DNA of 64,000 bases, from NCBI GenBank assembly GCA_964633195.1, contig CAZWFL010000009.1, forward strand, positions 14,679 to 78,678. The letters run 5' to 3'. The position numbers and the translations under genes were made by a program. This document shows positions 6,104 to 48,465 of this stretch, piece after piece (the stretch's first letter is position 1; every line of letters begins with the position of its first letter). Under the pieces are notes generated by a model, which saw only the letters and a list, made by a program, of their open reading frames with translations, made no database searches and was not told the DNA's origin. The stretch is from an uncultured Rikenellaceae bacterium (GTDB taxonomy: Bacteria > Bacteroidota > Bacteroidia > Bacteroidales > VadinHA17).

Positions 6104-6976
6104 ATGAAAAAAACAAAACTCCTTTCACTTATTCTGATCATTGCCATCTCGGGTATGGCTATTACACTTTTTGACTCATGCAAGCCGAAGCAGAAATACA
6201 TAGGATTGCAGCTCTATTCGGTACGTGATTCTATAAGAAACGATGTTCCGGGAGCCATTGAGAAAGTTGCTGCAATGGGCTATAAATTTGTCGAGCCGGC
6301 AGGTTACCGCGACGGCAAATTCTATAATATGGAACCTGCTGATTTTAAGTCTCTTTGTGATGCCAGTAATCTTCCGATCCTCAGCTCGCACACCGGACGG
6401 AACGTTTATGACTCAACCAATTATGAAGAGACTATGGCATGGTGGGATCAGTGTATTGATGCTCATGTTGCCGCCGGAGCAAAATACATAGTACAGCCAT
6501 CGATGGGGCGTTCAGCGTATGATAGTCTTGAGAGCCTTAAACAATGGTGTGATTATTTCAACGAGGTAGGTGAGAAGTGCAACGCCAAAGGGATAAGATT
6601 TGGATATCACAACCACGACAGAGAATTTACCACCGTACACGATGGTGTTATAATGTACGATTTTATGCTCGAGAATACCGATCCGGCCAAAGTGATGTTC
6701 CAGCTCGATCTTTACTGGTGTGTTGTAGGTGGTAAGGATCCGGTTGATTATTTCAACAAATATCCTGGCCGTTTTGAGTTATGGCACATAAAGGATAAGG
6801 AAGAAATAGGTGCAAGCGGCATGATGGATTTTGAATCGATATGGGCTGCCAGGGATATTTCAGGGATGAAATATGGAATTGTGGAAGTTGAAAAATATAA
6901 TTTCGACGTGTTTACCAGCTGCCAGAAGAGCCTTGAATGGCTTAATGCTGCAGAATTTGTTGTAATGCCGGAATAA
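6104..6976 (+). CDS. Lipoprotein sugar phosphate isomerase/epimerase (xylose isomerase-like TIM barrel)
   Basis: 290 aa. Signal plus lipobox-like LFDSC. FGYHNHDREF and WHIKD motifs are typical of the AP_endonuc_2 family. Confidence 0.7.
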   Translation: MKKTKLLSLILIIAISGMAITLFDSCKPKQKYIGLQLYSVRDSIRNDVPGAIEKVAAMGYKFVEPAGYRDGKFYNMEPADFKSLCDASNLPILSSHTGRNVYDSTNYEETMAWWDQCIDAHVAAGAKYIVQPSMGRSAYDSLESLKQWCDYFNEVGEKCNAKGIRFGYHNHDREFTTVHDGVIMYDFMLENTDPAKVMFQLDLYWCVVGGKDPVDYFNKYPGRFELWHIKDKEEIGASGMMDFESIWAARDISGMKYGIVEVEKYNFDVFTSCQKSLEWLNAAEFVVMPE

Positions 6977-7010
6977 CTTCTCTTAAGGGAAGGTACTGAT
7001 AGATTGCTTA

Positions 7011-7050
7011 AAAAGTGGTCTGGTGTTTGAAGCCGGACCACTTTTATTTT
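7011..7050 (+). terminator. Rho-independent terminator-like hairpin
   Basis: aaaagtggtc (7011-7020) pairs perfectly with gaccactttt (7036-7045), and the stem extends by tgg/ccg. The loop is 9 nt and a T-rich tail follows. It lies 35 nt after stop 6976. The A-run/T-run symmetry could allow bidirectional action. Confidence 0.65.
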
Positions 7051-7156
7051 ATCTGACTGATGATTTATTACCGTAATTCAATCTGGCTCATTTCATTATC
7101 TGAAGGTTTCTCCAGTAAGCATTACCGGGAAATCCCCTGAAACTTTCAAATAGAAG

Positions 7157-7196
7157 ACCGGTTACTGCACATAAAGGCGGTAACCGGTTTTTTATT
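7157..7196. terminator. Second hairpin in the convergent spacer
   Basis: accggttac (7157-7165) pairs with gtaaccggt (7180-7188), followed by tttttatt. It abuts the stop of the minus-strand gene at 7192. Confidence 0.4.
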
Positions 7197-8673
7197 CGGT
7201 ACCGAAAAATGTCGTTACTGAATTGGGCGGAGCAACAAATAACAGCTTTCCGTCATTTATTCTGAACTCCCCTACATCTTTGTACATTTCATCCTTCCCG
7301 CTTGTCCGGAAGGCTTTCAGCCTGTTTGTTTTAATACCTTTTAAAGTTATTTCAATCGGTTTTTCCCGTGTCAGGTTCGTATTTGTTACAACAAATGCGT
7401 CAGGATTTTTTGTTCCGTCCGAAGAAAAAGCTATGACCGGCAGCTCACTGTCCATCGACATTGTCCATGCGACCTTCATGCCCGGTTGTCCGGCACGGGA
7501 CACCTGCTTGTAGAAATAATAACCTGGCTGTATCTCGTATGAACCATCTTCGCTTACCCTGATCGCACACCCCGGATTGGGATCGCCTCCCACCCAGAGA
7601 GGGGGTCGCTGCATGCCCGCCCAGGGGATCAGGCCGTTAATACCGGCTTCGTAGATATTACCCCATATCTCCTTGATGAACCTTGAATCCATCCTGCTCC
7701 ACGATGTTGATGTTACCCATGCATGAAGCCCGGGACGAACAGACTGCAGGTATTTTATTCCATGTCCGGTATGACTACCGTACCATCTGTTATCATACCC
7801 TCCGACATAAAAACCATGCGAGGTAATCAGACCAATGTTACGCATGGCCTGATCATCGGCAGCTATTGCCTCGGGTAATCCCCAGAAGCTGAAACGGTAC
7901 CAGTTGGTTGGTTCACCGTTGGTTACTGACACATCCCTGAGACCTGCCTTGTCAAGCATGGGTTGCATAAATGAAAGAAAATCAGTTACCTGTGAAGGAG
8001 GCCAGAACATATTATAATCGTGACCTTTACCTATATTGCCTTCTTTACCGTCCCATGGCCATCGTTCCCAGTCCTCGCCCTCATTATGAAGCGAGATATA
8101 TTTTACCGGCAATTTTTCTTTCTCTTTCAGGAACTTTGCCCAGTCTATCAGGTAGTTGGCGAGATCTGATTTATGTGCCGGGTCGAGATCCCTCCCGCGC
8201 ATGACCTTTTGAAGGGTCATGTATGCAGGCGGGCCATACAAAGTAGTAATGATCTGCAGATCACCGCCACGCGAACGGGTCTTCCCGAGCCCCATCCTTA
8301 CAAACATCCGCATATTGGCCGTGGAGGTTTCATGATTATATTTCCCTCCCGGTTCACTCTGGTGAAAAGGATCGAGGAACATCTTTACCAGCCCAACTTT
8401 CAGTCCGTTTTCCCCGAACACCAAATCGATGATCTCTTCGCGGCTCTTTCCGGTCATGATGCTGAATCCGCCGTAATCCTTCGCATCGATGTTGTAATCA
8501 ATGGTCTGTGCAGTCTCAACATAATTGAAACCGAAGCCGTCCCACTCCCTCAGGGTTTTTGAGAAATCAACTGTTGCAGGGCACCCTTTGAATACAGGGT
8601 ATTGTGCCGGCAGTGACGGACATTTTAGTATAACAAGACAAACAAATGCAATTATCGTTGCTGCTTTTTTCAT
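7192..8673 (-). CDS. Secreted putative glycoside hydrolase (clan GH-A, GH30-like)
   Basis: 493 aa with signal peptide MKKAATIIAFVCLVILKCPSLPAQ. ISLHNEGEDW resembles the NE(P) acid/base strand of GH-A enzymes. The C-terminal part looks like a beta-sandwich. The family assignment is tentative. Confidence 0.4.
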   Translation of the reverse strand: MKKAATIIAFVCLVILKCPSLPAQYPVFKGCPATVDFSKTLREWDGFGFNYVETAQTIDYNIDAKDYGGFSIMTGKSREEIIDLVFGENGLKVGLVKMFLDPFHQSEPGGKYNHETSTANMRMFVRMGLGKTRSRGGDLQIITTLYGPPAYMTLQKVMRGRDLDPAHKSDLANYLIDWAKFLKEKEKLPVKYISLHNEGEDWERWPWDGKEGNIGKGHDYNMFWPPSQVTDFLSFMQPMLDKAGLRDVSVTNGEPTNWYRFSFWGLPEAIAADDQAMRNIGLITSHGFYVGGYDNRWYGSHTGHGIKYLQSVRPGLHAWVTSTSWSRMDSRFIKEIWGNIYEAGINGLIPWAGMQRPPLWVGGDPNPGCAIRVSEDGSYEIQPGYYFYKQVSRAGQPGMKVAWTMSMDSELPVIAFSSDGTKNPDAFVVTNTNLTREKPIEITLKGIKTNRLKAFRTSGKDEMYKDVGEFRINDGKLLFVAPPNSVTTFFGTE

Positions 8674-8715: not shown

Positions 8716-9747
8716 TCAGGGTAACAATACAACCTTTACAAGCCCTGGTTCCTTTCTGTATAATCTGCTGAACCAGTGTGCTCCTTCGGACAACGGAGCC
8801 TCGGCAGAAAGCAGTATGTCCGTATTGATCTCCTTTCGGCCAATCATATCAAGTACTGCAGGGTATTCACCGCAGATTGCACAGCTTCCCTGCAGCCTGA
8901 TCTGGCGGGTTACCACACTCTGTAATGGCAGGTCAACACTTGGGGATAAATTACCTATAAGTGTTACTGTACCGCCTTTCCTGACTGATTCAATGGCTGT
9001 TAATACTGATTCTCTTACACCTGCGGCCTCAAAGGAGAGATCAGCACCCCGTCCGGATGTGAGGTGAAAAACTCTCTCAATCACATTATCCGTGACGGGA
9101 TTAAAGGCATGGTCGGCTCCCAGATTTTCCGCTATCTCCAGTTTAGACTGGTCGGTGTCAATCGCAATAATATTACCGCAGCCTGCTGAACGAAGGATCT
9201 GAATAACAAAAAGGCCTATCATCCCGGTCCCGACAACCACCGCACTATCGTTCCACGACGGGGAAACCAGTCTCACGGCATGAGCGGCAACAGCCACAGG
9301 TTCAACCATGGCAGCCTGAGTGAAGGTTACCTGGTCCGGGATTCTGTAAAGGATGTGCTGCGGGATATTAACAAATTCTGCAAATGCCCCGTGACGGCGA
9401 TACTCACCGGGAGAGACTCCCAGCACCATACGGTTATCACTGAGGTTGTACATCCCTTTTAATGTAAACCAGTCGTTCAAAGGATATATGGTCGAGTCAA
9501 AAGTGACCCTGTCGCCTGTTTTCCAGTCTTTTACATCCGATCCTGTTTCAATTATCACTCCCGCGGCCTCATGTCCCATAATAATGGGAGGGATACGCCT
9601 TCCGGTACTTCCATCCATACCGTGTACATCACTTCCGCATATGCCGGCTGCCTTTATCTGAACAAGAACTTCGCCGGGAGCAACAACAGGATCGGGCCAG
9701 TCGCGGTAAACAAGCCTGTTGTATTCTTCAAGGACCAGTGCTTTCAT
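8716..9747 (-). CDS. Zinc-dependent alcohol/polyol dehydrogenase (MDR family, sorbitol/threonine dehydrogenase-like)
   Basis: True start taken as MKALVLEE (cat at 9745-9747). Motifs GICGSDVH, GHEAAGVI and Rossmann VVVGTGMIGL. The upstream 106 codons of the tracked ORF are low-complexity and run into the divergent gene. Confidence 0.8.
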   Translation of the reverse strand: MKALVLEEYNRLVYRDWPDPVVAPGEVLVQIKAAGICGSDVHGMDGSTGRRIPPIIMGHEAAGVIIETGSDVKDWKTGDRVTFDSTIYPLNDWFTLKGMYNLSDNRMVLGVSPGEYRRHGAFAEFVNIPQHILYRIPDQVTFTQAAMVEPVAVAAHAVRLVSPSWNDSAVVVGTGMIGLFVIQILRSAGCGNIIAIDTDQSKLEIAENLGADHAFNPVTDNVIERVFHLTSGRGADLSFEAAGVRESVLTAIESVRKGGTVTLIGNLSPSVDLPLQSVVTRQIRLQGSCAICGEYPAVLDMIGRKEINTDILLSAEAPLSEGAHWFSRLYRKEPGLVKVVLLP

Positions 9748-16858: not shown

Positions 16859-18280
16859 ATGGTAACTTTTATCATCTCGATACTGATCCTGATTCTTGGT
16901 TATCTGTTCTATTCGAAGTTTGTTGAGAAGATTGCGGGGGCTGATCCTGGAAGAGAGACCCCGGCTGTCAGGCTAAGAGACGGAGTGGATTATGTACCAA
17001 TGCCGTGGTGGAGGATCTTTCTGATTCAGTTCCTGAACATTGCCGGTCTGGGTCCTATCTTCGGGGCCATTGCCGGGGCTATGTGGGGTCCGGTAGCCTT
17101 TCTGTGGATTGTTCTGGGATCGGTTTTTGCGGGTGCGGTTCACGATTATTTCTCGGGGATGCTGTCGGTCAGGCATAATGGATTAAGCATCACAGAGATA
17201 GTGGGTATTTATCTTGGCCGGGGAACAAAACAGTTCATGCGGGGATTCACGGTAATTCTTATGGTTCTGGTGGGAGCGGTTTTTATAATGGGACCGGCAG
17301 GTATTCTTGCAGGGCTTACTCCCGATTATGCCACGATGACTTTCTGGGTATGGATTGTTTTATTCTATTATATACTTGCAACGATGCTGCCCATTGACAA
17401 GATCATAGGAAGAATATACCCGCTCTTTGGCTTTGCTCTCCTCTTCATGGCTGTCGGACTTATTTCCGCCCTTTTTGTAAAAGGATATCATATCCCTGAG
17501 CTGACTCCTGAAAACTTCAGGAATTTTCATGTTAATGCCGATAGGTTCCCTGTATTCCCTATGATGTTCATTACGATTGCATGTGGAGCAATTTCGGGAT
17601 TCCATTCAACCCAGTCACCTCTTATGGCCCGCTGCCTCACAAACGAGAGGCTGGGACGGCGTGTATTCTACGGGGCCATGATATCTGAAGGTATTGTTGC
17701 GATGATATGGGCAGCAATAGGCATGAGCTTTTACGGAGGCATACGGGAGCTCAATGATATTATGACTGCACAGGGGGGTAATGCTGCGGTTATAGTAAAC
17801 GAGATTTCCAACTCACTGCTGGGAAAATTCGGTGGTTTCCTGGCTTTGCTTGGAGTTGTGGCAGCACCAATTACATCGGGCGATACTGCTTTCCGGAGTG
17901 CCAGACTGATAGTTGCTGATTTCCTGAATTATAAACAGGGACCGGTAAAAAACAGGCTGTTCGTAAGTATCCCGTTGTTTGCCATAGGATTTTTGATTAC
18001 AAGGATAGATTTCAGCATAATATGGAGATACTTTGCATGGTCAAACCAGACACTTGCAACTGTTGTACTCTGGTCAATAACCGTGTTCCTTGTTCAGGAA
18101 CGTAAATTCTACTGGATCACTCTAATCCCTGCTGTTTTTATGACCGCAGTAACGAGCACGTATCTCCTTTTTGCACCTGAAGGCTTTGCACTTCCCGGCT
18201 CAATTGCATATCCTGCCGGGATTATCATTTCGCTGGCGTTAATGGCGGGGTTTTTTATTTATTTGAGGAGAACGAATTGA
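16859..18280 (+). CDS. cstA: Carbon starvation protein A family transporter
   Basis: 473 aa, polytopic. N-terminal LGYLFYSKFVEKI, DGVDYVPMPWW and NIAGLGPIFGAIAGAMWGP...GAVHDYFSGMLSVRHNGLSI match the CstA signature region. Confidence 0.8.
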   Translation: MVTFIISILILILGYLFYSKFVEKIAGADPGRETPAVRLRDGVDYVPMPWWRIFLIQFLNIAGLGPIFGAIAGAMWGPVAFLWIVLGSVFAGAVHDYFSGMLSVRHNGLSITEIVGIYLGRGTKQFMRGFTVILMVLVGAVFIMGPAGILAGLTPDYATMTFWVWIVLFYYILATMLPIDKIIGRIYPLFGFALLFMAVGLISALFVKGYHIPELTPENFRNFHVNADRFPVFPMMFITIACGAISGFHSTQSPLMARCLTNERLGRRVFYGAMISEGIVAMIWAAIGMSFYGGIRELNDIMTAQGGNAAVIVNEISNSLLGKFGGFLALLGVVAAPITSGDTAFRSARLIVADFLNYKQGPVKNRLFVSIPLFAIGFLITRIDFSIIWRYFAWSNQTLATVVLWSITVFLVQERKFYWITLIPAVFMTAVTSTYLLFAPEGFALPGSIAYPAGIIISLALMAGFFIYLRRTN

Positions 18281-18287
18281 AGAATGA

Positions 18288-18490
18288 CAGTGAGGCTGTA
18301 TCAAAAGCCTCTTAATAGCCCCCTACCCCCTGCCTTGCTTCGCCGTAGCGGCTACGCGAAGGCGAAGAAGGGGGTCATCAAACATCAGATAATGAGTAAG
18401 TCCCCTTTAGGGCCTGCCTGCCGTAGCGTCAGCGCAGGCAGGGATTTAGGGGCGACTTAAAGGAATCGGGCTTTTGATACAGCCTCACTG
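18288..18490. repeat. 203-bp palindromic intergenic element with perfect 22-bp terminal inverted repeats (MITE-like)
   Basis: cagtgaggctgtatcaaaagcc (18288-18309) is the exact reverse complement of ggcttttgatacagcctcactg (18469-18490). The interior holds GTAGC-loop hairpins (gcttcgccgtagcggctacgcgaaggcgaag; cctgcctgccgtagcgtcagcgcaggcaggg). Confidence 0.85.
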
Positions 18491-18701
18491 AAGAAATTGT
18501 GATTTATAAATCAAAAGATCTATTTTCCCTTGTAAATATTGATTATTGTTTATATTTTTATTCACAATCTTTGATTACCCTGCAGACTAACCTAAACCGT
18601 TCTGCCTATGAATATTTCCCATTAATTAAATCGAAACAGTAATTAACACATTTACTGTAATTTATCATTTTCGTTTTTAATTTAATTAACCTAACTAAAG
18701 T

Positions 18702-21700
18702 ATGAAAGAGAAACTTGCAAAGGAGGCGCATGTCTCGGAGCGCCTCATGAAAATGCTTTCAGGGCTTATGATCGCAATCTTTCTGATTGTGAGCGGAGCC
18801 ATGAATGTCTCAGGTGCTTCAGGTACGGATCAGCAACAGGTTACCGTATCAGGTATGGTGACCGATGCATCAACAGGTGATCCGATGCCCGGAGTCAACG
18901 TTATTATTAAGGGAACCACACTGGGAGCTCTTACACTGGGTGACGGGAGATATACACTTACTGTCCCCGACCGCGATGCCACACTCGTGTTTTCGTTCAT
19001 CGGGTACGATACCAGGGAGGAGCTTATTGCCGGAAGGACGACAATTAATGTCACTCTCACTTCCACCACAACCGCCCTCGACGAGGTGATTGTTACAGGT
19101 TACGGAACACAGAAAAAAAGCGACCTTACCGGATCTGTTGTAAGGGTGACAATGGATCAGAAGGCAACCCTGGCAAACGTCAACCTTTCCCAGGCTCTGT
19201 CGGGAGCATCTGCCGGAGTTAATGTACAGGCATCCGGTCTTGCGGGAAGCGAACCGAGCCTTGCAATCCGTGGCCGTACCTCATTGTCGGCAAGCGACAG
19301 GCCGCTCATAGTCCTCGATGGTATAATCTACAATGGTGCAATAGCTGACATCAACATTAATGATGTGGAATCGATAGATATCCTGAAAGATGCCAGCGCA
19401 GCAGCAGTTTATGGTTCAAGATCTGCCAACGGGGTTATGATTATCACCACTAAAAAAGGACAATCGGAAAAGCCGGTGATATCATTCAACATGTATTACG
19501 GATATCAGGATATGACCAACAACCCGATGAGGGTTATGAATGCCGAGGAGTATGCCATCAGGCTGACAGATTATTACTATCAGCAGGATCTGTATACATG
19601 GTACAAAACAATGCCGACCAGCGATGCCGGAAAACCTGTAAGGCCGGATGTTACAAACCGTGAGGTTGTTGCCGCCAGGCTGAGGTCTCAGGAAGAAAGA
19701 GATAATTATATTGCCGGTAATGAGATCGACTGGGTAAAGGAAGTTCTGCAGATAGCACCTATACAGAACTATAACCTTAACGTCTCCGGCAGATCCGCAA
19801 GATCGAGTTACTATTTCTCAGGATCATACACAGACGAGGAAGGAATTCAGCTTAATGACCAGTTCAGCAGGATAACCCTTCACACCAATCTCGAAAGTAA
19901 AGTGACCGACTGGCTCACCGTGGGTTTAATCTCTTCCTATTCATTCAGGGACTATTCGGGTATTGAAGCCAGTCTTGGAAATGCAAGGTCGTGCAGCCCG
20001 CTGGCAGATAACAAGATAGGCCAGCCCGATTACGACATGTATCTAACAGGCGAGGTCTATATGACATACCCTCTTGTTTATTTGTTTATTAATAATAAGG
20101 ATATCAGGAATAACCTGTTCCTTGTCGGTAATGCAAAGATCACTGTTCCGTGGATACAGGGACTCACTTATGAATTCAACTACTCTAACACCTATTCAAA
20201 CAGGAACAATTTCACCTTCTACCCTGTTACAACACCCGGCGGGGTAACCAACAAGGGTCAGGCTGTGAAAAATCCCTCGGAGGAGCGGAACTGGATATAT
20301 AACAACATTGTAACCTATCTGCGTAGTTTCGGCGATCACCAGATAAATGCAACACTTCTTTACAGCCGCGAGAGCCGTAATGCACAGAGCTCAACGCTTA
20401 CGGCGACAGGTTTTGAAAACGAGGTGCTGGGTTATAATAATATGGGTCTTGGTACACTTAGTACCGTTTCTTCATCAGCATGGGAAGAGAACAGCCTTTC
20501 ATACATGGCCCGCGCCAATTATTCTTTCAAGAGCCGCTATCTGCTCACAGCAACTGTACGCCGCGATGGCTTTTCGGGATTTGGCGCCACCAATAAGTTC
20601 GCAACCTTCCCTTCTGTATCAGTCGGATGGGTCGCATCTGAAGAGTCATTCCTGAGAGATGTGAGATGGCTATACCTGAAGCTGAGAACCTCATACGGGA
20701 AGAATGGCAACCAGGGGATAGGACGTTATTCAAGCTTCTCGCGAATGACTGCCGAGCCGTATGTTTACGGACCTGCTACCTTTATCGGTGTTTATCCCAG
20801 CACACTGGGAAATGCCAGCCTTAGCTGGGAAGCAACGTCATCATTCAACGTCGGGATAGACTTTGGACTGTTCAACAGGAGAATATCAGGATCATTGGAT
20901 CTTTACAAGGCCACTACCACCGATGTGCTTGTAAGCCGTGCACTTCCTCCCACAAGCGGGTATGCAAGCGTCTGGACAAACATAGGTGCGATTGAAAACA
21001 AAGGATTTGAGCTGGAACTGAGATCGGTCAATCTTACCGGTCAGCTTGGCTGGCAGACAGACTTCATCTTCTCTCTCAACAGGGATAAGATCACAAAGCT
21101 TTATGGTGACGAGAACGACAGGGACATCGGAAACTCATGGTTTGTAGGAGAACCAATCAGTGCCATCTACGATTATGAGATGGCCGGAGGGCTCTGGACT
21201 GAAGCCGAACTGTATGCAGGACAGACATATAATAACTGGTACCCCGGTCAGTATAAATATGTTGACCAGAATGGTGACGGTGTTATAGAACCGACAAACG
21301 ACAGGAAGATAATCGGATACACAACGCCGAGCCACAGGTTCAGTATTAATAACAGTTTTGACTACAGGAATTTCACCTTCTCCTTCTTTTTTAATGCCGT
21401 TCAGGGTGGCAAGAAGTATTACCTGGCAAACAATGCATCGGTTGTCAACGTCGATTGGCGTTCCGATAACGTTCTCAGGATAAATGCTTCTGCAGTCCGT
21501 CCTTACTGGAGGCCCGACAATGGGGTTGATAATGCGACAGGAGTTTATAACTCACCGGCTGTGTCGAGCGGTATTTACGAAAGCAGGAGTTTTGTCAGGC
21601 TGCAGGATGTATCTCTTACATACCGGCTTGGTCCGGCAGTTCTCAACTTACTGAATGTGGAGGCTGCGCAGTTCTATGTTGCCAGCAAGAACCCATATGT

Positions 21701-21794
21701 ATGGACCAAGTGGTCAGGCTGGGATCCTGAAACAGGCACCAGCAACAGCCCCTTGATGAGAAACATAACCGCAGGTTTCAGACTTACGTTCTAA
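18702..21794 (+). CDS. SusC/RagA-family TonB-dependent outer-membrane transporter
   Basis: 1030 aa. CarboxypepD_reg-like VTVSGMVTDASTGDPMPGVNVIIKGT. TonB-box region DEVIVTGYGTQKKSDLTGSV. Plug IDILKDASAAAVYGSRSANGVMIITTKKG. Terminal ...AGFRLTF. The start may instead be MKMLSG at 18747. Confidence 0.9.
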   Translation: MKEKLAKEAHVSERLMKMLSGLMIAIFLIVSGAMNVSGASGTDQQQVTVSGMVTDASTGDPMPGVNVIIKGTTLGALTLGDGRYTLTVPDRDATLVFSFIGYDTREELIAGRTTINVTLTSTTTALDEVIVTGYGTQKKSDLTGSVVRVTMDQKATLANVNLSQALSGASAGVNVQASGLAGSEPSLAIRGRTSLSASDRPLIVLDGIIYNGAIADININDVESIDILKDASAAAVYGSRSANGVMIITTKKGQSEKPVISFNMYYGYQDMTNNPMRVMNAEEYAIRLTDYYYQQDLYTWYKTMPTSDAGKPVRPDVTNREVVAARLRSQEERDNYIAGNEIDWVKEVLQIAPIQNYNLNVSGRSARSSYYFSGSYTDEEGIQLNDQFSRITLHTNLESKVTDWLTVGLISSYSFRDYSGIEASLGNARSCSPLADNKIGQPDYDMYLTGEVYMTYPLVYLFINNKDIRNNLFLVGNAKITVPWIQGLTYEFNYSNTYSNRNNFTFYPVTTPGGVTNKGQAVKNPSEERNWIYNNIVTYLRSFGDHQINATLLYSRESRNAQSSTLTATGFENEVLGYNNMGLGTLSTVSSSAWEENSLSYMARANYSFKSRYLLTATVRRDGFSGFGATNKFATFPSVSVGWVASEESFLRDVRWLYLKLRTSYGKNGNQGIGRYSSFSRMTAEPYVYGPATFIGVYPSTLGNASLSWEATSSFNVGIDFGLFNRRISGSLDLYKATTTDVLVSRALPPTSGYASVWTNIGAIENKGFELELRSVNLTGQLGWQTDFIFSLNRDKITKLYGDENDRDIGNSWFVGEPISAIYDYEMAGGLWTEAELYAGQTYNNWYPGQYKYVDQNGDGVIEPTNDRKIIGYTTPSHRFSINNSFDYRNFTFSFFFNAVQGGKKYYLANNASVVNVDWRSDNVLRINASAVRPYWRPDNGVDNATGVYNSPAVSSGIYESRSFVRLQDVSLTYRLGPAVLNLLNVEAAQFYVASKNPYVWTKWSGWDPETGTSNSPLMRNITAGFRLTF

Positions 21795-21820
21795 AAGATC
21801 AGTCAGAGAAAGAAAAATGA

Positions 21821-23569
21821 ATGATTATGAAACCAGAAAAATTATATAAGATGAAAAAATATTTCGATATTCTCAGCAAAAAGAGTCTGTTAATAGCGGG
21901 TACTCTGCTGCTAATGTTTTCTTCGTGCGACGAAAGTGTCCTCGATGAGGTGCCTCTTGACTTCCTTGCCCCGGAGAACGCCTATACTACTGTGGCGGGT
22001 GTAAGGCAGGGTATCACCGGACTGCACTATACATTCCGCAATTACTGGTTCTGGGGCGATCAGGACCAGGGTAGCATGTGGAGGGGTGTCGGGACCGATG
22101 TGGCATTTCACGGTGAGGACCCGAACAGCACAAGATTCCTTTGCAACTATGTTAACTACCTTATCCCGGCCTCCAACTATGTCCTGCAATACTGGACCAG
22201 GAATTATGAACTGATCCAGAGGGCTAATGTGCTGGTTGACAGGATAGATAACTCTGATCCTGCAATGTGGGCCAGCGAAGCACAAAAAAATGCTTTCAAG
22301 GCTGAAGCCATGTTCTTCAGGGCTTATGCATACCGTATCCTGGTATCATATTTTGGCGATGTGCCCCTGGTAACAGAAGTTATCAATTCAGCCAAAACAG
22401 ATTTTGTCAGAGCGCCTAAAGCTGATGTATACAAGCAGATAGAGGATGATCTGATATATGCAGGCGCAAACCTTCCGGGCCGTCTGCAGGAGGAGGCTCC
22501 GGGAAGAATCACCAAAGCGGCGGCCCTTACGGTCCTCAGTGAGATTTATCTTGAGCAGGGTAAATACCAGCTGGCAGTTGATGCAGCAACTTCGGTAATA
22601 ACAGGGGCCGGATATGCACTCATGACAGACCGTTTCGGTGCCCAGATTGATGTTTTCGGAACAGCCGATGCTTACTATGACCTTTTCAGGTACGGAAACC
22701 AGAACCTTGCAGAAAATACCGAGAACATCTGGTCAGTCCAGTTTGAACCGCTTATTGAAGGAGGAGGCGCCTGGCAGGGTGAAAGAGGAATGGGCCCCGC
22801 TTATTTCAGATGGGGCAATACCCCTGATGGTGTAAAAGCATTCCGCGGCGAATTTGTTAATGGTGTATATACCGGGTATTCTGATACACTGGGACGTCCT
22901 GTTTCATGGGTGCGGCCTACCACATATGTAACACACCACATATGGGCAGACAACTGGGACACGGATATCCGTAACGCGAAGCATAGTATAAAAAGGGATT
23001 TCTATTATGACAATCCGGCATCGGTGTGGGACAAGCAGAAGCTTGAATTCAGCCAGTTTGCTGCAAATTATGCCGCAGGCACAAGGGATCCGGTCAGGGA
23101 TTCCTGCCAGTATATATTCCCCTATTTCATGAAGTTCGCAGATCCATGTAACCATTTTGACCGGGCCCACCAGTCGGGAGGAGGATACAGCCATAAGGAC
23201 GTTTACGTGATACGTCTGGCTGAGACCATACTTCTGCGGGCGGAAGCTTATCTGGGACTGGGACAGAAGGATCTGGCGGCTGCAGATATAAATCTTGTCA
23301 GGAACAGAGCCCAGGCAACACCGGTTGAGGAGGATGATGTCACAATTGAGTATATCCTCGATGAGAGAGCAAGGGAGCTGTACGGAGAGGAGTGGAGGCA
23401 CATTACCCTTCGAAGGGTCGGGTTGCTCGTTCAGAGAGTAAGAGCTCTGAATGATAACCCGAAGAACCCGGGACTAAATATACAGGATTATCATGTGCTC
23501 TGGCCTATTCCTCTGAGCCAGATCGATTTGAATATTGATGCTGTAATAACACAGAATCCGGAGTACTAG
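21821..23569 (+). CDS. SusD/RagB-family outer-membrane lipoprotein
   Basis: 582 aa, immediately downstream of the SusC gene. Lipobox MFSSCDE. TPR-like SusD blocks FFRAYAYRIL, LLRAEAYLGLG and ERARELYGEEWRH. Alternative start at 21851. Confidence 0.85.
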   Translation: MIMKPEKLYKMKKYFDILSKKSLLIAGTLLLMFSSCDESVLDEVPLDFLAPENAYTTVAGVRQGITGLHYTFRNYWFWGDQDQGSMWRGVGTDVAFHGEDPNSTRFLCNYVNYLIPASNYVLQYWTRNYELIQRANVLVDRIDNSDPAMWASEAQKNAFKAEAMFFRAYAYRILVSYFGDVPLVTEVINSAKTDFVRAPKADVYKQIEDDLIYAGANLPGRLQEEAPGRITKAAALTVLSEIYLEQGKYQLAVDAATSVITGAGYALMTDRFGAQIDVFGTADAYYDLFRYGNQNLAENTENIWSVQFEPLIEGGGAWQGERGMGPAYFRWGNTPDGVKAFRGEFVNGVYTGYSDTLGRPVSWVRPTTYVTHHIWADNWDTDIRNAKHSIKRDFYYDNPASVWDKQKLEFSQFAANYAAGTRDPVRDSCQYIFPYFMKFADPCNHFDRAHQSGGGYSHKDVYVIRLAETILLRAEAYLGLGQKDLAAADINLVRNRAQATPVEEDDVTIEYILDERARELYGEEWRHITLRRVGLLVQRVRALNDNPKNPGLNIQDYHVLWPIPLSQIDLNIDAVITQNPEY

Positions 23570-23598
23570 AAGGATTCTGAGGTAAAGAATTGTTTATT

Positions 23599-23790
23599 GA
23601 GGCTGTATTAAAAGGTACTTATAACCGCAAAGGCTGCAAAGCCCTCCTTCGTCCCGATAAATCCGGACTTCGGCGGGCAGGATTGACGCAAAGGACGCAA
23701 AGCTGGCAGACAAACTGCTAAATCTTTGCGTCCTTAGCGTTTATCCTGGCGTTCTTTGTGGTTTATGGTTTTAATCTTTTAATACAGCCT
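23599..23790. repeat. 192-bp palindromic intergenic element, same TIR family as 18288-18490
   Basis: gaggctgtattaaaag (23599-23614) versus cttttaatacagcct (23776-23790). The core shared with the first element is GAGGCTGTATYAAAAG. Interior nested stems include ggacgcaaag/ctttgcgtcc and the module gtcccgataaatccggac. Confidence 0.8.
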
Positions 23791-23797
23791 TAATATT

Positions 23798-25066
23798 TCA
23801 TATTTCAACCGGGCTGATCTTTGGGACCAGCAGGTGTATTATCAGCAGGGCGATGAGGTACCCGAAGCCTGCTATTGCGAAAGGGATTACATACCCGTCA
23901 ACACCTGTATTCTGCAGTATCTTTCCGACTCCGTATGTGGCTATCACTCCCCCGACGGCTCCTGAGAAACCTCCGAATCCGGCAACAGTAGCAGTGGCCT
24001 TTTTTGGAAAGATATCCGACATAAGGCTGAAAATATTTGCAGACCAGCCGCAATGGCCCCCGGCAGCAATGGCTATTAATCCGACTGCCAGCCATAAATT
24101 CTCCGTATGGGGAACCATTATAACCGGAATTGCAAAGAGTCCGCACGCAAGCATCCCAAGTTTCCGTCCTTTATTCAACCCAAAGCCCATTTTCAGGAAT
24201 TTTGACGAGAGCCATCCCAGGAAGATTCCCAGTGCCCATGAAACCAGGTAAATAGTAAAAAAAGGCACTCCTATGTCCTTCAGATTAACATCAAATTTAC
24301 TGTAAAGGAATTTGGCTCCCCAGAAAAGGTAGAACCACCAGATCGGATCGGCCATGAACTTAGCGATGGCAATTGCCCATGCTCCACGGTGCGGCAGGAT
24401 ATCTTTCCACCTTACTTTTTCCGTGATATTTTCCGTGCCACTGTCGCTGTTGATATATTCCAGTTCTGGAGGGGAGACTTTCTTGTGTTTTTCCGGCTGA
24501 CTGTAGTATCTGAGCCATATTACCATCCAGACCAGTGAGAGCGGAAAGGTCCACAGGAAACCGGCTTTCCAGCTGTCAACAGTAAGGACCAGGGCCGGTA
24601 TGATTAATGGAGAAAGAATGGTTCCCACATTTGTGCCTCCATTAAATATTCCCACTGCAAGAGCTCTCTCTTTCTTCGGGAACCACTCTGCAACCACTTT
24701 GATTGCAGCAGGAAAATTACCGGACTGACCGATTGCCAGGTTAAAACGGGCAATGGCAAATCCGACCCATGTGCGGGCCAGAGTGTGAGCCAGCGTGGCC
24801 AGGCTCCATATTCCTATTGCCAGAATATATCCTTTACGTGTTCCTATCCGGTCGATTATGGTTCCCATCAGAAGAAAACATACAGCGTATGCGATCATAA
24901 AGGCGCTGTTGATCATCCCGTATTGCTCCTCATTCCAGCCTATCTCATCCTGAAGGTACGGAGCAAGGATGCCGAGAGCTGACCGGTCGATGTAAAGAAT
25001 GGTTGTCGCAATGAAGATCAGGCCCAGGATTACCCAGCGAAAATTGGTCATATTTTTCCTATCCAT
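23798..25066 (-). CDS. MFS transporter, ACS/ExuT (hexuronate)-like
   Basis: 422 aa with 12 predicted helices. N-terminal WVILGLIFIATTILYIDRSALGILAP and DRIGTRKG loop motif. Overlaps the upstream gene by 8 nt, suggesting an operon. Confidence 0.8.
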   Translation of the reverse strand: MDRKNMTNFRWVILGLIFIATTILYIDRSALGILAPYLQDEIGWNEEQYGMINSAFMIAYAVCFLLMGTIIDRIGTRKGYILAIGIWSLATLAHTLARTWVGFAIARFNLAIGQSGNFPAAIKVVAEWFPKKERALAVGIFNGGTNVGTILSPLIIPALVLTVDSWKAGFLWTFPLSLVWMVIWLRYYSQPEKHKKVSPPELEYINSDSGTENITEKVRWKDILPHRGAWAIAIAKFMADPIWWFYLFWGAKFLYSKFDVNLKDIGVPFFTIYLVSWALGIFLGWLSSKFLKMGFGLNKGRKLGMLACGLFAIPVIMVPHTENLWLAVGLIAIAAGGHCGWSANIFSLMSDIFPKKATATVAGFGGFSGAVGGVIATYGVGKILQNTGVDGYVIPFAIAGFGYLIALLIIHLLVPKISPVEI

Positions 25067-42592: not shown

Positions 42593-42621
42593 ACGATAAC
42601 TAATTGAAAATTAAGAATATC

Positions 42622-45600
42622 ATGATAAAATCTTTAGGAAGGATACTCTTTGTATTATCCATTTTGACCGGTTCGTATAATCTGGCAGGACAGCACGGCT
42701 GGACCGTTAATCCGGCCGATTATGCGTATAATGGCAGTGTGACTGCCGTGGTTTTTCTTGGCAGTAATGAAGTAACAGCGGGAACGCTCGGAGCATTTGT
42801 CGGAAGTACCTGTCGCGGATTTGTAAATGCATCCCCTTCTGCGGTGGTTGCCGGACAATATGTTTTTTTATTGACATGTTACAGTAATGTCGAGAGCGGT
42901 GAAACGCTTACTTTCCGTTACTATAACGGATTATTTTATGATGTTATCGAAACAGTTGAATTTCAGAATAATATGATCAGAGGGAGTGAAGCGTCTCCGT
43001 TATTATTTCATATCTGCGATCCTGTTGCGGTAACAACCCAACCTGTCAGCACCAGCATGTGTGCCGGCACCGGTACAGCATCGTTTACCATCACCGCAGA
43101 CGGAACTGAACCACTTTACCAATGGCAATATTACAACGGATCTGCGTGGGTGAGTGTAACTAACGGAACCCCTGCAGGGGCATCTTATTCAAATCCGACA
43201 ACTAATGTTCTGGGAATTGCAGGGATTACTGCAGCCGGAAGTTATCAGTACAGGTGTTATGTTACCAATAATTGCGATAATACCGATAATGCCACCTCCA
43301 ATTCTGCAACACTCACTGTTCAGAGTCTTTCAGAAGCTCCAACCGGGATTACAATAACCAACAACAATACATGCTATGGAACAAATAAGACCCTGACGGT
43401 TCAGGGAGGGAGCCTGGGTACCGGTGCAACATGGCAATGGTTCACCGGAACATGTGGAGGAACAGCTGCAGGTACAGGATCAAGTATAGTAGTTAATCCA
43501 CCTGCCGGGACCAGTACAGTTTATTACGTACGTGCATCGGGAACATGCAATACAACAGATTGTGCAGAGGGTACCGTAATTGTCACACCGAATGTAGGCA
43601 CACCTTCTGTTCCTGTGCCATCATTTACCACTATCTGTAGGGGTAGTCCGAATACAAGCTATACTACCTCTGCAGTAAATGCAACCAGTTATAACTGGTC
43701 GGTAACAGGCTCCGGCAATTCAATCTCCGGAACAGGTACTACAGGAACTGTAACATGGTCACCTTCATTTACCGGTGTGGCTACGATAAGTGTTACAGCA
43801 AGCGGATGCGGAGGTCCATCGCCATCAGCCTCAACAACAGTGACTGTTCTGGCACCGCCTTCAGCACCAGTAATAGGGACCATTACGCCGCCAACCTGTA
43901 CTGTTTCAACAGGTAGCGTTGTTCTCAGTGGTTTACCATCATCAGGGACATGGACCATTAGAAGAACACCGGGCGGGACAACATATACAGGCACGGGCAC
44001 CAGTACAACTATTGCTAATCTGCCTGAGGGAACATATACATTTACTGTTGAACTTATTACCGGTTGCACATCACCTCCGTCAGGTAGTGTTGTAATTCCT
44101 TCCCAGCCTCCCACACCGACACCACCGGTGGTCGGGACAATTACTCCACCTACCTGCACACTCTCCACTGGCAGTGTTGCACTGAGCGGGCTTCCTTCAA
44201 CAGGAGAATGGACACTTACCCGTTATCCCGGGGCAGCACAAACAAAAGGTACCGGTGCAAGCACTGTCATCTCGGGCCTGCCTGCCGGAGCATACAATTA
44301 TACTGTCACCAATCAGTACGGATGTACTTCACTGCCTTCGGCAGATGTAGTAATACCAGAACAGCCACCAACACCCGGAGCTCCGCAGATAGGCACAATC
44401 ACACAACCAACCTGTGCTGTTGCAACAGGAAGTGTGGTACTGAACGGTTTACCTTCAGGCTCCTGGTCAATTTTGCCTTCTTACAGTGCCTCGGAGATAG
44501 GCGGTTCAGGACCTTCCGCAACAATAACAGGAGTACCTCCGGGAACACATACTTTCAGGGTATCAAATCAGTTTGGCTGTACCTCTGCACCTTCGGCCAG
44601 CGTGCTAATAAATACACAGCCGCCAACACCCACACCTCCGGTAGTCGGCACAGTTACCCAGCCAACATGCACGGTTGCTACGGGGAGTGTTGCACTGAGC
44701 GGATTACCTTCAAGCGGAACATGGACTGTAACCCGAAACCCGGGAGGCGTTACAACCTCCGGATCAGGTACAACAGCTCTGATAACAGGTATACCTGCAG
44801 GAACCTATACCTTTACCGTAACAAATTCATTTGGTTGTACCTCTTCTCCGTCAACGCAAGCTGTGATTAATGCTCAGCCTCCCTCTCCGGCGCCTCCTTC
44901 TCAGACAGTCGATTGTACTCTGGGAGCAGGCAATGCAGTAGTGACAGTAACAAGCCCGACCGGCACCGGTCTGGAATACAGAATTGATGCCGGGCCTTAC
45001 CAGAGCAGTAATATATTCACAGGTGTGGCTAACGGAAGTCATACAATCACCGTAATAAATTCTTCCGGATGCACAACAACCGGCCCGGTATTTTCTGTAT
45101 CCTGCGGATGTGCCAATCCTCCTACCCTGACCCTCAGCAGTACAAGTGGCAGTACATGCGGGACTGAACCGGTAACTGTAACCAATAATACCTTCGGCGG
45201 GAGCGCGACAAGCGTCACATTAGCAGAAAACGGGTACGGTACTCTGATCCCACTGTCAACCAGTACAACTCCTTTTTCATTCATTTATACCCCGGCAGCA
45301 GCAGACGCAGGAAGAGTTGTAACTATAACAGTTACAACAAATAATCCTTTGGGATCTCCCTGTAATGCAGCCTCAGCCACTTATACTCTGACAGTTAATG
45401 CCATACCTGCAGCACCTTCAATCGGAACACGAACCCAACCCTCATGCACAGTTCCCATCGGAAGTGTTATACTTAACGGCTTACCCCCGACAGGTACATG
45501 GACACTGACCCGGAGTCCCGGAGGAGTGACTACAACAGGGACAGGAACAAGTACAACAATCTCAGGATTGACCCCAGGAACTTATTCATTCACTGTAACC

Positions 45601-47178
45601 AGCGAAGCCGGTTGCACATCACCCTCATCCGCCAATGTGGTTATCAATGAACAGCCTCCAACGCCAACACCTCCCGTTATTGGAACAATAACCCAGCCGA
45701 CATGTGCGGTTTCAACGGGTAGCGTGATTCTTACCGGCTTGCCAGCGACAGGAACCTGGACAGTAACCAGAAATCCGGGAGGAGTAACCAGAACGGGCAC
45801 AGGTACATCAGTGACGATAACTTCCATCTTACCCGGTTCTTATACTTTTACAGTAACTAACTCATTCGGATGCATATCAGCACCTTCAGATGAAGTGGTA
45901 ATAAATACCCAGCCTCCGACACCATCGCCTCCGTCAGTTGGTACTATAACACCACCAACATGTACTGTTGCAACCGGAAGTGTCATCCTTCTTGGTCTGC
46001 CATCTTCCGGGACATGGACGTTAACAAGATACCCGGGTACTATTACAACTACCGGTACCGGAACAAGTACAACAATAACAGAACTTCCGACGGGAACATA
46101 CAATTATACTGTCACAAACGATTTTGGTTGCACATCCCTTGCATCGGCTAATGTGGTAATTCCGGCCCAGCCCCCGACACCAACAACTCCTGTTATCGGG
46201 ACCATAACACAACCAACATATTCCGTACCTACAGGAAGCGTGGTCCTTAGCGGTTTGCCTTCAGGAGGCTGGATCATAACACGCTATCCGGGTGAGGTAA
46301 CAACAACCGGAACCGGAACAAGTACAACAATATCCGGACTGCCGGGCGGAGTATTTACTTTCACTGTTACCAATACGTTTGGATGTATATCTCCCCAGTC
46401 AAATCCGGTTACAATATCCACTCCCGGAAGTCCGACACTTATAATTACGGATCCGCCGGCAGTCTGTACACCAGCAATAGTGGACCTGACCAATCCGGCT
46501 GTTACAGAGGGTTCAACACCGGGTCTGATCTATACTTACTGGACCGATCCGGAGGCTACAAATGAATATCCCACACCGCAAACAGCAACAACAGGAACAT
46601 ACTATATTAAAGGCACTACTGTTTCGGGATTCTTTAATATTCAGCCCGTTAATGTAACTGTTGATCTTATGCCAGTGCCGGATGCCGGACCTGATCAGAC
46701 GCTTGAATATGTTTTCAGAACAACCCTGGAGGCATCACTCTTAAGCCACGAAACAGGAATATGGTCAGTATTGTCCGGTGAAGGTAATTTTACAAGTGTC
46801 ACTGACCCGGGAACTGTTGTTTCCAACCTTGCTCCGGGTGCGAATATTCTTGTATGGACGGTCACCAGTGGTGTCTGCCCGTCAGTATCTGACCAGGTTG
46901 TCATCACAGTCAACGACCTGACAATACCCACACTGATTACCCCAAACATGGACGGAAGAAATGATTTCTTTGTAGTGAGAGGCCTCGAAACTCTCGGCAG
47001 AACAGAAATTATCATCTTCGACCGGCGGGGATTGCAGGTATATAAGAACAGCGACTATGACAACGACTGGTACGGAAATGATTATAATGACAATGCGTTA
47101 CCTGACGATACCTATTTCTATGTTCTCAGAGGCGCAAATGGCAGGTCGGTGAGCGGGTACATCGTTATAAGAAGATAG
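42622..47178 (+). CDS. Giant repeat adhesin with T9SS type B (gliding-motility-associated, CHU_C) C-terminal sorting domain
   Basis: The tracked ORF opens at TTG 42604. ATG 42622 gives signal peptide MIKSLGRILFVLSILTGSYNLAGQ. Ig-like/CHU_C-associated domains (WQWFTGTCGG). C-terminus ITPNMDGRNDFFVVRGLE...IIIFDRRGLQVY...DDTYFYVL matches the type B sorting-domain pattern. Confidence 0.8.
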   Translation: MIKSLGRILFVLSILTGSYNLAGQHGWTVNPADYAYNGSVTAVVFLGSNEVTAGTLGAFVGSTCRGFVNASPSAVVAGQYVFLLTCYSNVESGETLTFRYYNGLFYDVIETVEFQNNMIRGSEASPLLFHICDPVAVTTQPVSTSMCAGTGTASFTITADGTEPLYQWQYYNGSAWVSVTNGTPAGASYSNPTTNVLGIAGITAAGSYQYRCYVTNNCDNTDNATSNSATLTVQSLSEAPTGITITNNNTCYGTNKTLTVQGGSLGTGATWQWFTGTCGGTAAGTGSSIVVNPPAGTSTVYYVRASGTCNTTDCAEGTVIVTPNVGTPSVPVPSFTTICRGSPNTSYTTSAVNATSYNWSVTGSGNSISGTGTTGTVTWSPSFTGVATISVTASGCGGPSPSASTTVTVLAPPSAPVIGTITPPTCTVSTGSVVLSGLPSSGTWTIRRTPGGTTYTGTGTSTTIANLPEGTYTFTVELITGCTSPPSGSVVIPSQPPTPTPPVVGTITPPTCTLSTGSVALSGLPSTGEWTLTRYPGAAQTKGTGASTVISGLPAGAYNYTVTNQYGCTSLPSADVVIPEQPPTPGAPQIGTITQPTCAVATGSVVLNGLPSGSWSILPSYSASEIGGSGPSATITGVPPGTHTFRVSNQFGCTSAPSASVLINTQPPTPTPPVVGTVTQPTCTVATGSVALSGLPSSGTWTVTRNPGGVTTSGSGTTALITGIPAGTYTFTVTNSFGCTSSPSTQAVINAQPPSPAPPSQTVDCTLGAGNAVVTVTSPTGTGLEYRIDAGPYQSSNIFTGVANGSHTITVINSSGCTTTGPVFSVSCGCANPPTLTLSSTSGSTCGTEPVTVTNNTFGGSATSVTLAENGYGTLIPLSTSTTPFSFIYTPAAADAGRVVTITVTTNNPLGSPCNAASATYTLTVNAIPAAPSIGTRTQPSCTVPIGSVILNGLPPTGTWTLTRSPGGVTTTGTGTSTTISGLTPGTYSFTVTSEAGCTSPSSANVVINEQPPTPTPPVIGTITQPTCAVSTGSVILTGLPATGTWTVTRNPGGVTRTGTGTSVTITSILPGSYTFTVTNSFGCISAPSDEVVINTQPPTPSPPSVGTITPPTCTVATGSVILLGLPSSGTWTLTRYPGTITTTGTGTSTTITELPTGTYNYTVTNDFGCTSLASANVVIPAQPPTPTTPVIGTITQPTYSVPTGSVVLSGLPSGGWIITRYPGEVTTTGTGTSTTISGLPGGVFTFTVTNTFGCISPQSNPVTISTPGSPTLIITDPPAVCTPAIVDLTNPAVTEGSTPGLIYTYWTDPEATNEYPTPQTATTGTYYIKGTTVSGFFNIQPVNVTVDLMPVPDAGPDQTLEYVFRTTLEASLLSHETGIWSVLSGEGNFTSVTDPGTVVSNLAPGANILVWTVTSGVCPSVSDQVVITVNDLTIPTLITPNMDGRNDFFVVRGLETLGRTEIIIFDRRGLQVYKNSDYDNDWYGNDYNDNALPDDTYFYVLRGANGRSVSGYIVIRR
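43852..46425 (+). repeat. Coding tandem array: eight canonical plus one divergent ~85-aa Cys-pair repeats
   Basis: Consensus PPTPxPPxxGTITxPTCxVxTGSVxLxGLPxxGTWTxTRxPGGVTTTGTGTSTTIxGLPxGTYxFTVTNxFGCTSxPSxxVVIxxQ. The copies are only ~70% identical at DNA level by eye. Confidence 0.8.
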
Positions 47179-47209
47179 ATATCCGGTTTCAGGGGTTCTG
47201 TTGCAGACC

Positions 47210-47272
47210 GGTAATCCCTGCCCGACTGACATCGGTCAGGCGGGGGTGATCGGTATTCAGTAATCGGTAACA
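47210..47272. repeat. Heptamer array (GGTAATC): 1 unit, a 28-bp GC hairpin insert, then 4 units
   Basis: ggtaatc at 47210-47216. Hairpin cctgcccgactgacatcggtcaggcggg at 47217-47244. ggtgatc ggtattc agtaatc ggtaaca at 47245-47272. Confidence 0.85.
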
Positions 47273-47324
47273 GAGGCTTTGAGAGATAAATATGGACATA
47301 TAAGAAACAAATTTTACCATAATA

Positions 47325-48242
47325 ATGAAGAAGTTATTTAGAATTCTAATTTTTCTGCTGGTGCCACTGAGCCTGGCGGGACAGCAGCCGCCGGTGACGA
47401 ACCAGTATATTCTCAATCCGCTTAGCATCAATCCTGCTTATGCAGGGAACAGGGGTGCATTGAACATTGCCGCTTTCTACAGGAAGCAGTGGGTCGGGAT
47501 ACCTGGTGCTCCGGAAACAATGACTCTGGCAATGGATGCGCCTGTACTTGACGGCAAGCTGGGTCTGGGACTTATCGTTGTCAATGACAAGATAGGTGTA
47601 ACCAGGGCTACACAATTCAGCTCAAACTATGCTTACAGAATAAGTATGGGTGACGGTTTGTTATCATTCGGACTGGGAGCAGGGCTGATAACCACCAATA
47701 CTGCCTGGTCCGACCTGGTGGTACTTGACCCCGGTGATGAAATATACCTTTCCGATTCACGGGCATATTATGTCCCTGATTTCAGCTTTGGAGTATACTA
47801 TTCGTACCGTAACTATTTTGCCGGACTATCAATTCCAAAATTACTCGGGTATGGATTCGATTACCCTGAGAATAAATATACTCTGAGCGTTGATCCCGGA
47901 CAATACTATTATCTGTTCAATACGGGTTATATCTTCACTCTGTCGCAGAAAACGAAATTTTTCCCATCAGCACTGTTAAGTTATTCTCCGGGTGACAGGC
48001 TTCTGTATGAGGTTAACGCACATTTCAATCTGTTCGACAGGTTGTGGGTTGGTGCATCTTACAGAAGCGAGCGTTCCGTAACCGGATTGCTGCAGTTTTC
48101 CATCAATAATCAGGTTAAAGCAGCATATTCATACGATTTTGATTTTGGCGATCTCCGCACCTACACGAGCGGATCACATGAGATCATGCTCAGGTATGAG
48201 TTCCGCTACAGGGTAGAGGTGGTTAATCCGCTGATTTTTTAA
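47325..48242 (+). CDS. PorP/SprF-family type IX secretion system membrane protein
   Basis: 305 aa. Signal peptide followed by QQPPVTNQYILNPLSINPAYAGNRGALNIAAFYRKQWVGIPGAP, the family-defining N-terminal block. Beta-barrel-like alternation to the C-terminus. Confidence 0.85.
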   Translation: MKKLFRILIFLLVPLSLAGQQPPVTNQYILNPLSINPAYAGNRGALNIAAFYRKQWVGIPGAPETMTLAMDAPVLDGKLGLGLIVVNDKIGVTRATQFSSNYAYRISMGDGLLSFGLGAGLITTNTAWSDLVVLDPGDEIYLSDSRAYYVPDFSFGVYYSYRNYFAGLSIPKLLGYGFDYPENKYTLSVDPGQYYYLFNTGYIFTLSQKTKFFPSALLSYSPGDRLLYEVNAHFNLFDRLWVGASYRSERSVTGLLQFSINNQVKAAYSYDFDFGDLRTYTSGSHEIMLRYEFRYRVEVVNPLIF

Positions 48243-48246
48243 GCAC

Positions 48247-48367: not shown

Positions 48368-48429
48368 GAACTGGCAGGTTATAAAAATTGAAATAATTTC
48401 AAAAACTTTCCTAACTTTAACACTCAAAT

Positions 48430-48459: not shown

Positions 48460-48465
48460 ATTAAT

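Follow-up and report, generated by a model that had tools for sequence, protein, structure and literature searches.

Why should a single susC-susD gene pair be bracketed by two long palindromes that share their ends? In the stretch of uncultured Rikenellaceae DNA analyzed here (64,000 nucleotides; hereafter the window), gene calls and Pfam matches give the order alpha-L-fucosidase, CstA-like protein, element A, susC, susD, element B, and a convergent transporter of the major facilitator superfamily (MFS). The initial annotation described A and B as two palindromes of about 200 bp with terminal inverted repeats of one family, and considered that they could be MITEs (miniature transposable elements with inverted repeats), homology for the exchange of susCD cassettes, or RNA stem-loops that insulate the pair. 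We compared both elements with genomes, metagenomes, and related loci (designated L followed by a number), and consider it probable that A and B inserted independently of each other and belong to one dispersed family of small, noncoding palindromic (foldback) mobile elements, most likely mobilized by a trans-acting enzyme that recognizes ends like those of the insertion sequence (IS) IS1016.

The two elements and their dispersed family

The sharing of termini that had been annotated is confirmed. Allowing <=2 mismatches, the core GAGGCTGTATYAAAAG matches four times in the window, exclusively in the four arms of A and B; 100 shuffles gave a mean of 0.12 matches and none of them (0/100) reached four. 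The arms of A (18288-18309 and 18469-18490) are the perfect 22-nt inverted repeats originally described, 100% complementary and spaced 159 nt apart, and those of B (23595-23614 and 23776-23795) are 20 nt long, 95% complementary, and spaced by 161 nt. Folding predicts -106 kcal/mol for A (z -8.6 versus shuffled controls) and -104.7 kcal/mol for B (z -12.7). Folding and copy comparison also agree with the annotation that the interiors are nested GC-rich hairpins that differ in sequence: those of A and B are unrelated to each other, and each element is a singleton in an all-against-all comparison of 89 copies, with no interior relative in either of the two scans described below. Neither element contains an open reading frame (ORF) of >=80 aa.

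The core is not confined to this locus. An exact two-arm pattern, with arms 147-177 nt apart and arm position 11 left free, produced 45 matching loci from species-representative genomes and another 43 from JGI metagenomes, which after deduplication amount to 75 unique sites. Most named hosts are Bacteroidota (Mucilaginibacter, Pedobacter, Cytophagia, Cyclobacteriaceae, Prolixibacteraceae, Draconibacterium, Paludibacter, Rikenellaceae, and Saprospiraceae); beyond this phylum, copies were found in one metagenome-assembled genome of the Calditrichota and in the Bacillota genera Salibacterium and Alteribacillus. One of the 45 genome loci, in Pseudobutyrivibrio (L007), falls inside a long ORF and is probably due to chance. 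The classification as a single MITE-like family of small, nonautonomous mobile DNA is therefore broadly right, as the same termini recur at 75 sites and A is polymorphic among relatives (see below).

What is conserved in the family is a pair of 16-nt inverted termini, RRGGCTGTATCAAAAG, the tips of which are mostly GAG or GGG; about half of the arms begin with GAGG instead of GG(GG), and across the 75 sites no base outside RRGGCTGTATCAAAAG is conserved. The interiors, about 160 nt long and built of nested GC-rich hairpin modules, group according to lineage (among them 18 copies of the Mucilaginibacter type, 13 of the Cytophagia type, and 8 of the Calditrichota type), and within one genome several copies at unrelated loci may have similar interiors. 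Recurring modules include GTCATTCC...GGAATGAC, CCCCTAAATCCCC...GGGGAC, and AACCRCRRAG...CTYYGYGGTT; the CCCCTAAATCCCC/GGGGAC modules, found in copies from Prolixibacteraceae and Paludibacter, resemble the second interior hairpin of A. A full-text literature search for the arm sequences returned unrelated eukaryotic papers only, and the family was not found in a 2024 review of prokaryotic MITEs. It is a new family of MITE/REPIN-like elements (REPINs are doublets of repetitive extragenic palindromic, or REP, sequences), widespread and apparently new to the literature.

Copies lie between genes, typically just behind one. All but one of the 45 loci from the genome scan are intergenic, the exception being the Pseudobutyrivibrio match, and at 47 of the 75 sites the 3' end of an ORF is <=120 nt away, often only 7-40 nt. 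The 5' flanks of the family are A-rich and the 3' flanks T-rich. The 78 proteins encoded beside 44 other copies match 130 different Pfam families, none with more than two members; SusD is absent from the families listed and there is no enrichment. The neighbors are thus a random assortment, and the association with susCD pairs or with the boundaries of polysaccharide utilization loci (PULs), which the initial annotation proposed to look for elsewhere, is not seen.

A second palindromic family, with ends AACCRCRRAG...CTYYGYGGTT, occurs alongside the first. It stands alone at the site of B in two relatives (L048:4660-4745 and L055:7075-7170), one copy is nested within B itself, and similar modules are present inside copies from Mucilaginibacter and Rikenellaceae.

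Table 1. Positions of the elements, their parts, and adjoining genes in the window
Feature	Position	Strand	Remarks
CstA-like gene	16859-18280		Stop 7 nt before A
TGAAGAA, left copy	18278..18284	+	Overlaps the CstA stop; TGA between copy and arm
Element A	18288..18490	.	203-bp foldback element
A left arm, conserved family core	18292..18307	+	GAGGCTGTATCAAAAG
A interior hairpin 1	18325..18375	.	CCCCCT...CTTCGCC..GGCGAAG..GGGGG; minimum-free-energy structure
A interior hairpin 2	18397..18459	.	GTCCCCTTTAGGG..GCCTGCCTGCC..GGCAGGCAGG..CCCTAAA-like; minimum-free-energy structure
A right arm, core as reverse complement	18471..18486	-
TGAAGAA, right copy	18489..18495	+	First 2 nt shared with the end of the right arm
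susC	18702-21794	+	Pfam Plug/CarbopepD_reg_2; bracketed, outside the elements
susD	21821-23569	+	Pfam SusD_RagB/SusD-like_3; bracketed, outside the elements
Element B	23595..23795	.	201-bp foldback element
B left arm core	23599..23614	+	GAGGCTGTATTAAAAG; T variant at arm position 11
B nested AACC...GGTT palindromic module	23623..23763	.	AACCGCAAAGGCTGCAAAG ... CTTTGTGGTT
B innermost hairpin	23678..23748	.	GACGCAAAGGACGCAAAG / CTTTGCGTCCTTAGCGT
B right arm core	23776..23791	-	AAGGCTGTATTAAAAG; 1 mismatch
MFS transporter gene	23798-25066	-	Convergent with susD

The layout of the locus (Table 1) places the end of A 211 nt from the susC start codon and the beginning of B 25-29 nt past the susD stop, so that the distances given initially (212 and 30 nt) were essentially right. 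The end of B lies 2-7 nt before the stop of the MFS gene, and the gap between the two convergent stop codons is almost entirely occupied by B. Identical copies of the window sequence are present in more than ten metagenome assemblies. Elsewhere in the window, positions 42604-55270 hold a type IX secretion-related cluster that encodes large CHU_C and Por_Secre_tail cargo proteins, PorP/SprF, and a PKD/OmpA protein. Positions 55600-64000 are a polysaccharide biosynthesis cluster (a flippase-like gene, a gene with a Wzy-type O-antigen ligase domain, Wzy_C, and several group 1 glycosyltransferases) with a G+C content of 33-37%, versus about 45% elsewhere.

The insertions and the susCD pair in related loci

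The initial annotation had suggested looking for strains that lack one of the elements, and a close relative, L069, proves to be such a case. It is 90.8% identical to the window upstream of A and 95.2% downstream, and it lacks exactly positions 18286-18488, the approximate span of the insertion; the BLAST alignment breaks at 18285|18489 with a query overlap of 5 nt. This clean empty site shows that A inserted recently. Its sequence is GAATTGATGAATAAATTGTG, without CAGT|ACTG, and the four outer nucleotides of the arms of A must therefore have come with the element. For the same reason we rejected two other origins for A, namely insertion into the stem of a pre-existing palindrome or terminator, and extension of the stem into the local flanks by template switching.

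Two copies of TGAAGAA, both displaced from the arms, could represent a target duplication of 5-7 nt, and their counterpart in L069 is single (TGATGAA); this is suggestive for A alone. The pre-insertion sequence, as reconstructed from both the window and L068, is 3 nt shorter than the empty site at L069:2082-2094, where TAA/ATA is additional; a simple indel could account for the difference, or a footprint of excision. A second comparison of filled and empty sites, at the icd locus of Mucilaginibacter, yielded downstream regions that are not syntenic.

Other relatives carry other sequences at this position. The cstA-susC gap of L055 is unrelated in sequence and has no A, despite a susCD that is 91% identical. 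In L068 the place of A is taken by a 35-nt GTAG-type hairpin (1507-1539) flanked by a 7-nt direct repeat, TTGATGA. Short GTAG...CTAC hairpins of this kind, such as GTAGAGACGCCCA..TGGGCGTCTCTAC and GTAGGGGCATTGCATGCAATGCCCCTAC, recur at the A or B positions of relatives (besides L068, in L070 around 9465-9495 and at site B of L049 and L070, the latter at L070:14587-14614); they resemble GTAG-tagged REPs and are different elements from A and B.

Site B has another history. In L049 and L070, which are about 80-82% identical to the window across the region, the right arm of B is found at the same position with 21/22 nt conserved, and the interior differs. L048 and L055 have instead an AACC-type palindrome of about 90 nt without arms (AACCACGG...CCGTGGTT), alignments of the window to L048 breaking at 23595|23790, and L052-L054, in which SusD is 76% identical, have only a plain hairpin. 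L055 (7060-7529) also has no MFS gene; there susD is followed directly by an AP_endonuc_2 (xylose isomerase-like) gene, which in the window lies beyond the MFS gene. As the site of A is empty in L069 and the right arm of B is common to a lineage of 80-82% identity, A and B were gained at different times, B being either older than A or separately acquired. The gap between susD and the MFS gene is a hot spot for the turnover of palindromic elements.

Could the two elements nevertheless act as a pair, either by providing homology for the exchange of susCD or as a composite mobile unit? The susCD genes, compared over positions 18702-23591, are indeed mosaic. Against L055, cstA is 76.9% identical and the opening 600 nt of susC are 73-78% identical; the values climb to 89-97% in the remainder of susC and in susD and drop to 76.6% downstream. 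Against L048, susCD is 91.5% identical and eight segments flanking it are 73-83% identical. Identity to L049 and L070 is uniform, at about 80-82%. Judging from these sequence identities, it appears that most of susCD was exchanged between species at a time after their genomes had diverged, and the right edge of the highly similar tract, which is not separable from the susD end or the B site, would suit a role for B. The left breakpoint, however, lies about 600 nt into susC, near 19300, and not at A, and neither exchange partner (L055 or L048) has family arms at either site; the arms were therefore not the recombination substrate, and the proposal that the elements mediate cassette exchange does not hold in that form. 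As for a composite unit, L055, L048, and L052 have susCD but neither A nor B, L069 retains the cstA-susC junction and arrangement without A, and these loci do not show the two copies and their cargo being gained or lost together. The different ages of A and B and the lack of SusC or SusD neighbors at other copies also argue against a pair. The pair reading is thus largely refuted, and we regard it as very improbable. With A and B being independent insertions of different age, their bracketing of susCD looks coincidental.

Ends, target sites, and the proposed mobilizing enzyme

The ends of the family point to an IS1016-like enzyme. The IS1016-group elements ISApl4 and ISEc69 end in GGGGCTGTAC / GGGGCTGTACTAGA, and the GGGG-type terminus of the family, GGGGCTGTAT, matches this end over its first 9 nt (9/10 with the next base). 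Conservation in the family begins exactly at the terminal position of the IS1016-type end. A related IS in Piscirickettsia has the end GGGGCTGACACC and a perfect 8-bp duplication. The co-variation of the two arms, detailed below, points the same way. MITEs of the IS1016 group (within the IS1595 family) are, like A and B, small and noncoding with terminal inverted repeats (22 nt in A, 20 nt in B), and they share with this family their dispersal in multiple copies (75 sites here) and insertion polymorphism (L069); like the family, the group favors A/T-rich intergenic surroundings. We therefore propose that a trans-acting enzyme recognizes the 16-nt ends and mobilizes the element, and that copies would persist in short gaps after stop codons, where they are presumably harmless. 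A would have entered the cstA-susC gap in this way recently, and B, or at least its right arm, would have resided much longer in the gap between susD and the MFS gene.

Several observations weigh against this proposal. IS1016-group elements make target duplications of 7-9 bp, and the family has none: the duplications that the initial annotation proposed to look for are absent family-wide, with direct repeats in the flanks as frequent as in mismatched-pair controls at every offset, and the displaced repeat described above is confined to A. The flanks just outside the core are instead often reverse-complementary to each other in a copy-specific manner, over >=4 nt at 15/75 sites versus 0.9 expected and over >=3 nt at 20/75 sites versus 2.6 expected, with a peak at exactly 4 nt, which ordinary transposition by a DDE enzyme does not predict. 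Across phyla the ends keep all 16 nt, more than known IS1016-group ends have in common, which diverge after 7-10 nt; about half of the arms begin with GAGG, and the tips of A and B are themselves GAGG and not GGGG. From the source genome just two copies can be seen, both in the window, and neither has interior relatives in the scans.

The search for an autonomous partner likewise counts against the proposal. No IS with the 16-mer was found in limited searches, and a metagenome scan for an arm followed 130-160 nt on by codons for the transposase motif IExFW gave 0 matches. A tblastn search of all fetched loci (about 0.9 Mb) with IS1016/IS1595 transposases gave one match, in L031, to an IS1595-family element (6563-7572), which was rejected as a partner because its own inverted ends, TATGACTATCCG, are unrelated to the arms. 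This element is about 1 kb long and combines a zinc-finger N-terminus with a DDE domain that is truncated; 320 nt separate it from the family copy, and a tRNA-like fragment is located between the two. Matches in Bacteroidota plasmids were also rejected: a relic in Hymenobacter is degenerate and has other ends, and an IS1595 element in Bacteroides is truncated. Scans of viral contigs for the arm pair and for an arm with the transposase motif gave 0 matches, as did blastn of A and B against plasmids.

The missing target duplications are what would be expected if the 16-22-nt arms were REP-type sequences and the whole element moved, like a REPIN, as a single-stranded hairpin through an HUH/Y1 enzyme (a REP-associated tyrosine transposase, RAYT or TnpA-REP, or an IS200/IS605-like enzyme), because such an enzyme makes no target duplication. 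REP doublets likewise consist of two inverted short sequences in one hairpin, are extragenic, and have arms that evolve in concert. In keeping with this, A and B each fold in their entirety into one long hairpin, copies are extragenic and at 3' ends, complementarity often runs outward with copy-specific sequence, and the arms co-vary, position 11 having the same non-consensus base on both arms at 8 sites (and being discordant at 8 sites). Moreover, RAYT subclass 2.6 is dominated by Bacteroidetes and tied to atypical REPs (PMC6006769). The arms, however, have no GTAG or CGTC tag, only RRGGCTGTATCAAAAG, and the 16-mer is not in the supplementary REP lists of the same study. No RAYT gene was identified, nor did any Y1 gene turn up beside a copy, although no search aimed at Y1 was made. 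The spacer of about 160 nt is longer than that of REPINs and built of other hairpin modules, and the same arm occurs in several phyla, whereas REP sequences are normally species-specific. The match of the termini to IS1016-type DDE ends and the possible 5-7-nt duplication at A also speak for a different enzyme, and we regard the REPIN-like route as rather unlikely.

A more speculative idea, to which we give a still lower probability, is that the family represents a foldback class, spread across phyla, that moves as a single-stranded hairpin and not by ordinary cut-and-paste. The 16-nt IS1016-like sequence would then be a subterminal recognition site, with cleavage a few nucleotides outside it and fold-back fill-in transferring a copy of them to the other arm. 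Three features would be accounted for at once in this way, namely the lack of target duplications, the copy-specific inverted flanks of 3-7 nt, and the concerted evolution of the arms; the inverted flanks of A, being absent from the empty site, did arrive with the element. The loop of such a hairpin would be a landing pad in which other palindromic modules nest.

Transcript ends and known repeat families

The position of the copies directly after stop codons raises the question of whether A and B were kept in place by selection for RNA or DNA structure, as bidirectional terminators, as stabilizers of 3' ends, or as RNase III sites that insulate the susCD transcript. Several features would fit: the predicted folds are very stable, the A-rich 5' and T-rich 3' flanks of the family become outright A-tracts and T-tracts at some copies, in some copies, such as those of L031 and L038, the left arm can fold locally into a terminator-like hairpin, and lineages with genes of about 80% identity agree at 21/22 nt in the right arm of B. 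A and B, however, lack the combination of a canonical hairpin and a T-tract, their 3' flanks being AAGAAATT and TAATATTT, and they are not called as terminators; T-tracts do follow some family copies elsewhere. Rfam has no family that matches either element at gathering or permissive thresholds, close relatives lack the elements or use other hairpins, and interiors are unrelated between copies. In addition, transition mismatches between the arms, read on the strand transcribed from the upstream gene at the 75 sites, comprise 13 A.C and 4 G.U pairs, the opposite of what tolerance of wobble pairing in RNA predicts, and thus show no sign of selection for RNA pairing; the imbalance may reflect a mutational strand bias rather than chance. 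Selection for structure is therefore quite unlikely to be what keeps the elements at this locus.

In copies from Cyclobacteriaceae and Salibacterium (L010, L031, L009, L038, and L047), the left arm is followed immediately by CAGCCTC or CAGCTCC and a run of T. This forms a local terminator-like hairpin inside the larger element, GAGGCTG-TATCAAAAGG-CAGCCTC-TTTTTT.

Insertion alone could still affect the neighboring transcripts. REP, ERIC, and Correia repeats can stabilize 3' ends or reduce read-through. By the folding model, very stable hairpins of about -105 kcal/mol would lie at the ends of the cstA, susD, and MFS transcripts, and by analogy with those repeats the hairpins of A and B may stabilize 3' ends or dampen read-through. 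The Correia elements of Neisseria, ERIC of the enterobacteria, and RUP, BOX, and SPRITE of Streptococcus pneumoniae are, like A and B, intergenic palindromes of 100-200 bp that end up in transcripts. BOX, RUP, and SPRITE cluster and insert into one another (PMC10969869), a nesting that resembles the AACC-type module within B. There is no sequence relationship to any of these repeats (no Rfam match), and hosts and termini differ; Correia elements, furthermore, make TA duplications.

For the biology of the locus, the favored reading of A and B as independent insertions of a mobile family means that susCD does not form a cassette bounded by repeats and that these elements are no markers of PUL boundaries. 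The mosaic of susCD across species bears in its own right on the spread of polysaccharide-uptake genes. Repeats of this kind break metagenome assemblies and generate spurious ORFs, and their recognition is practically useful. For the family, the same 16-nt ends are found in at least three phyla around lineage-specific interiors, and the combination of IS1016-like tips, no target duplications, and copy-specific inverted flanks suggests that the movement of these elements could reveal an unusual route of transposition.

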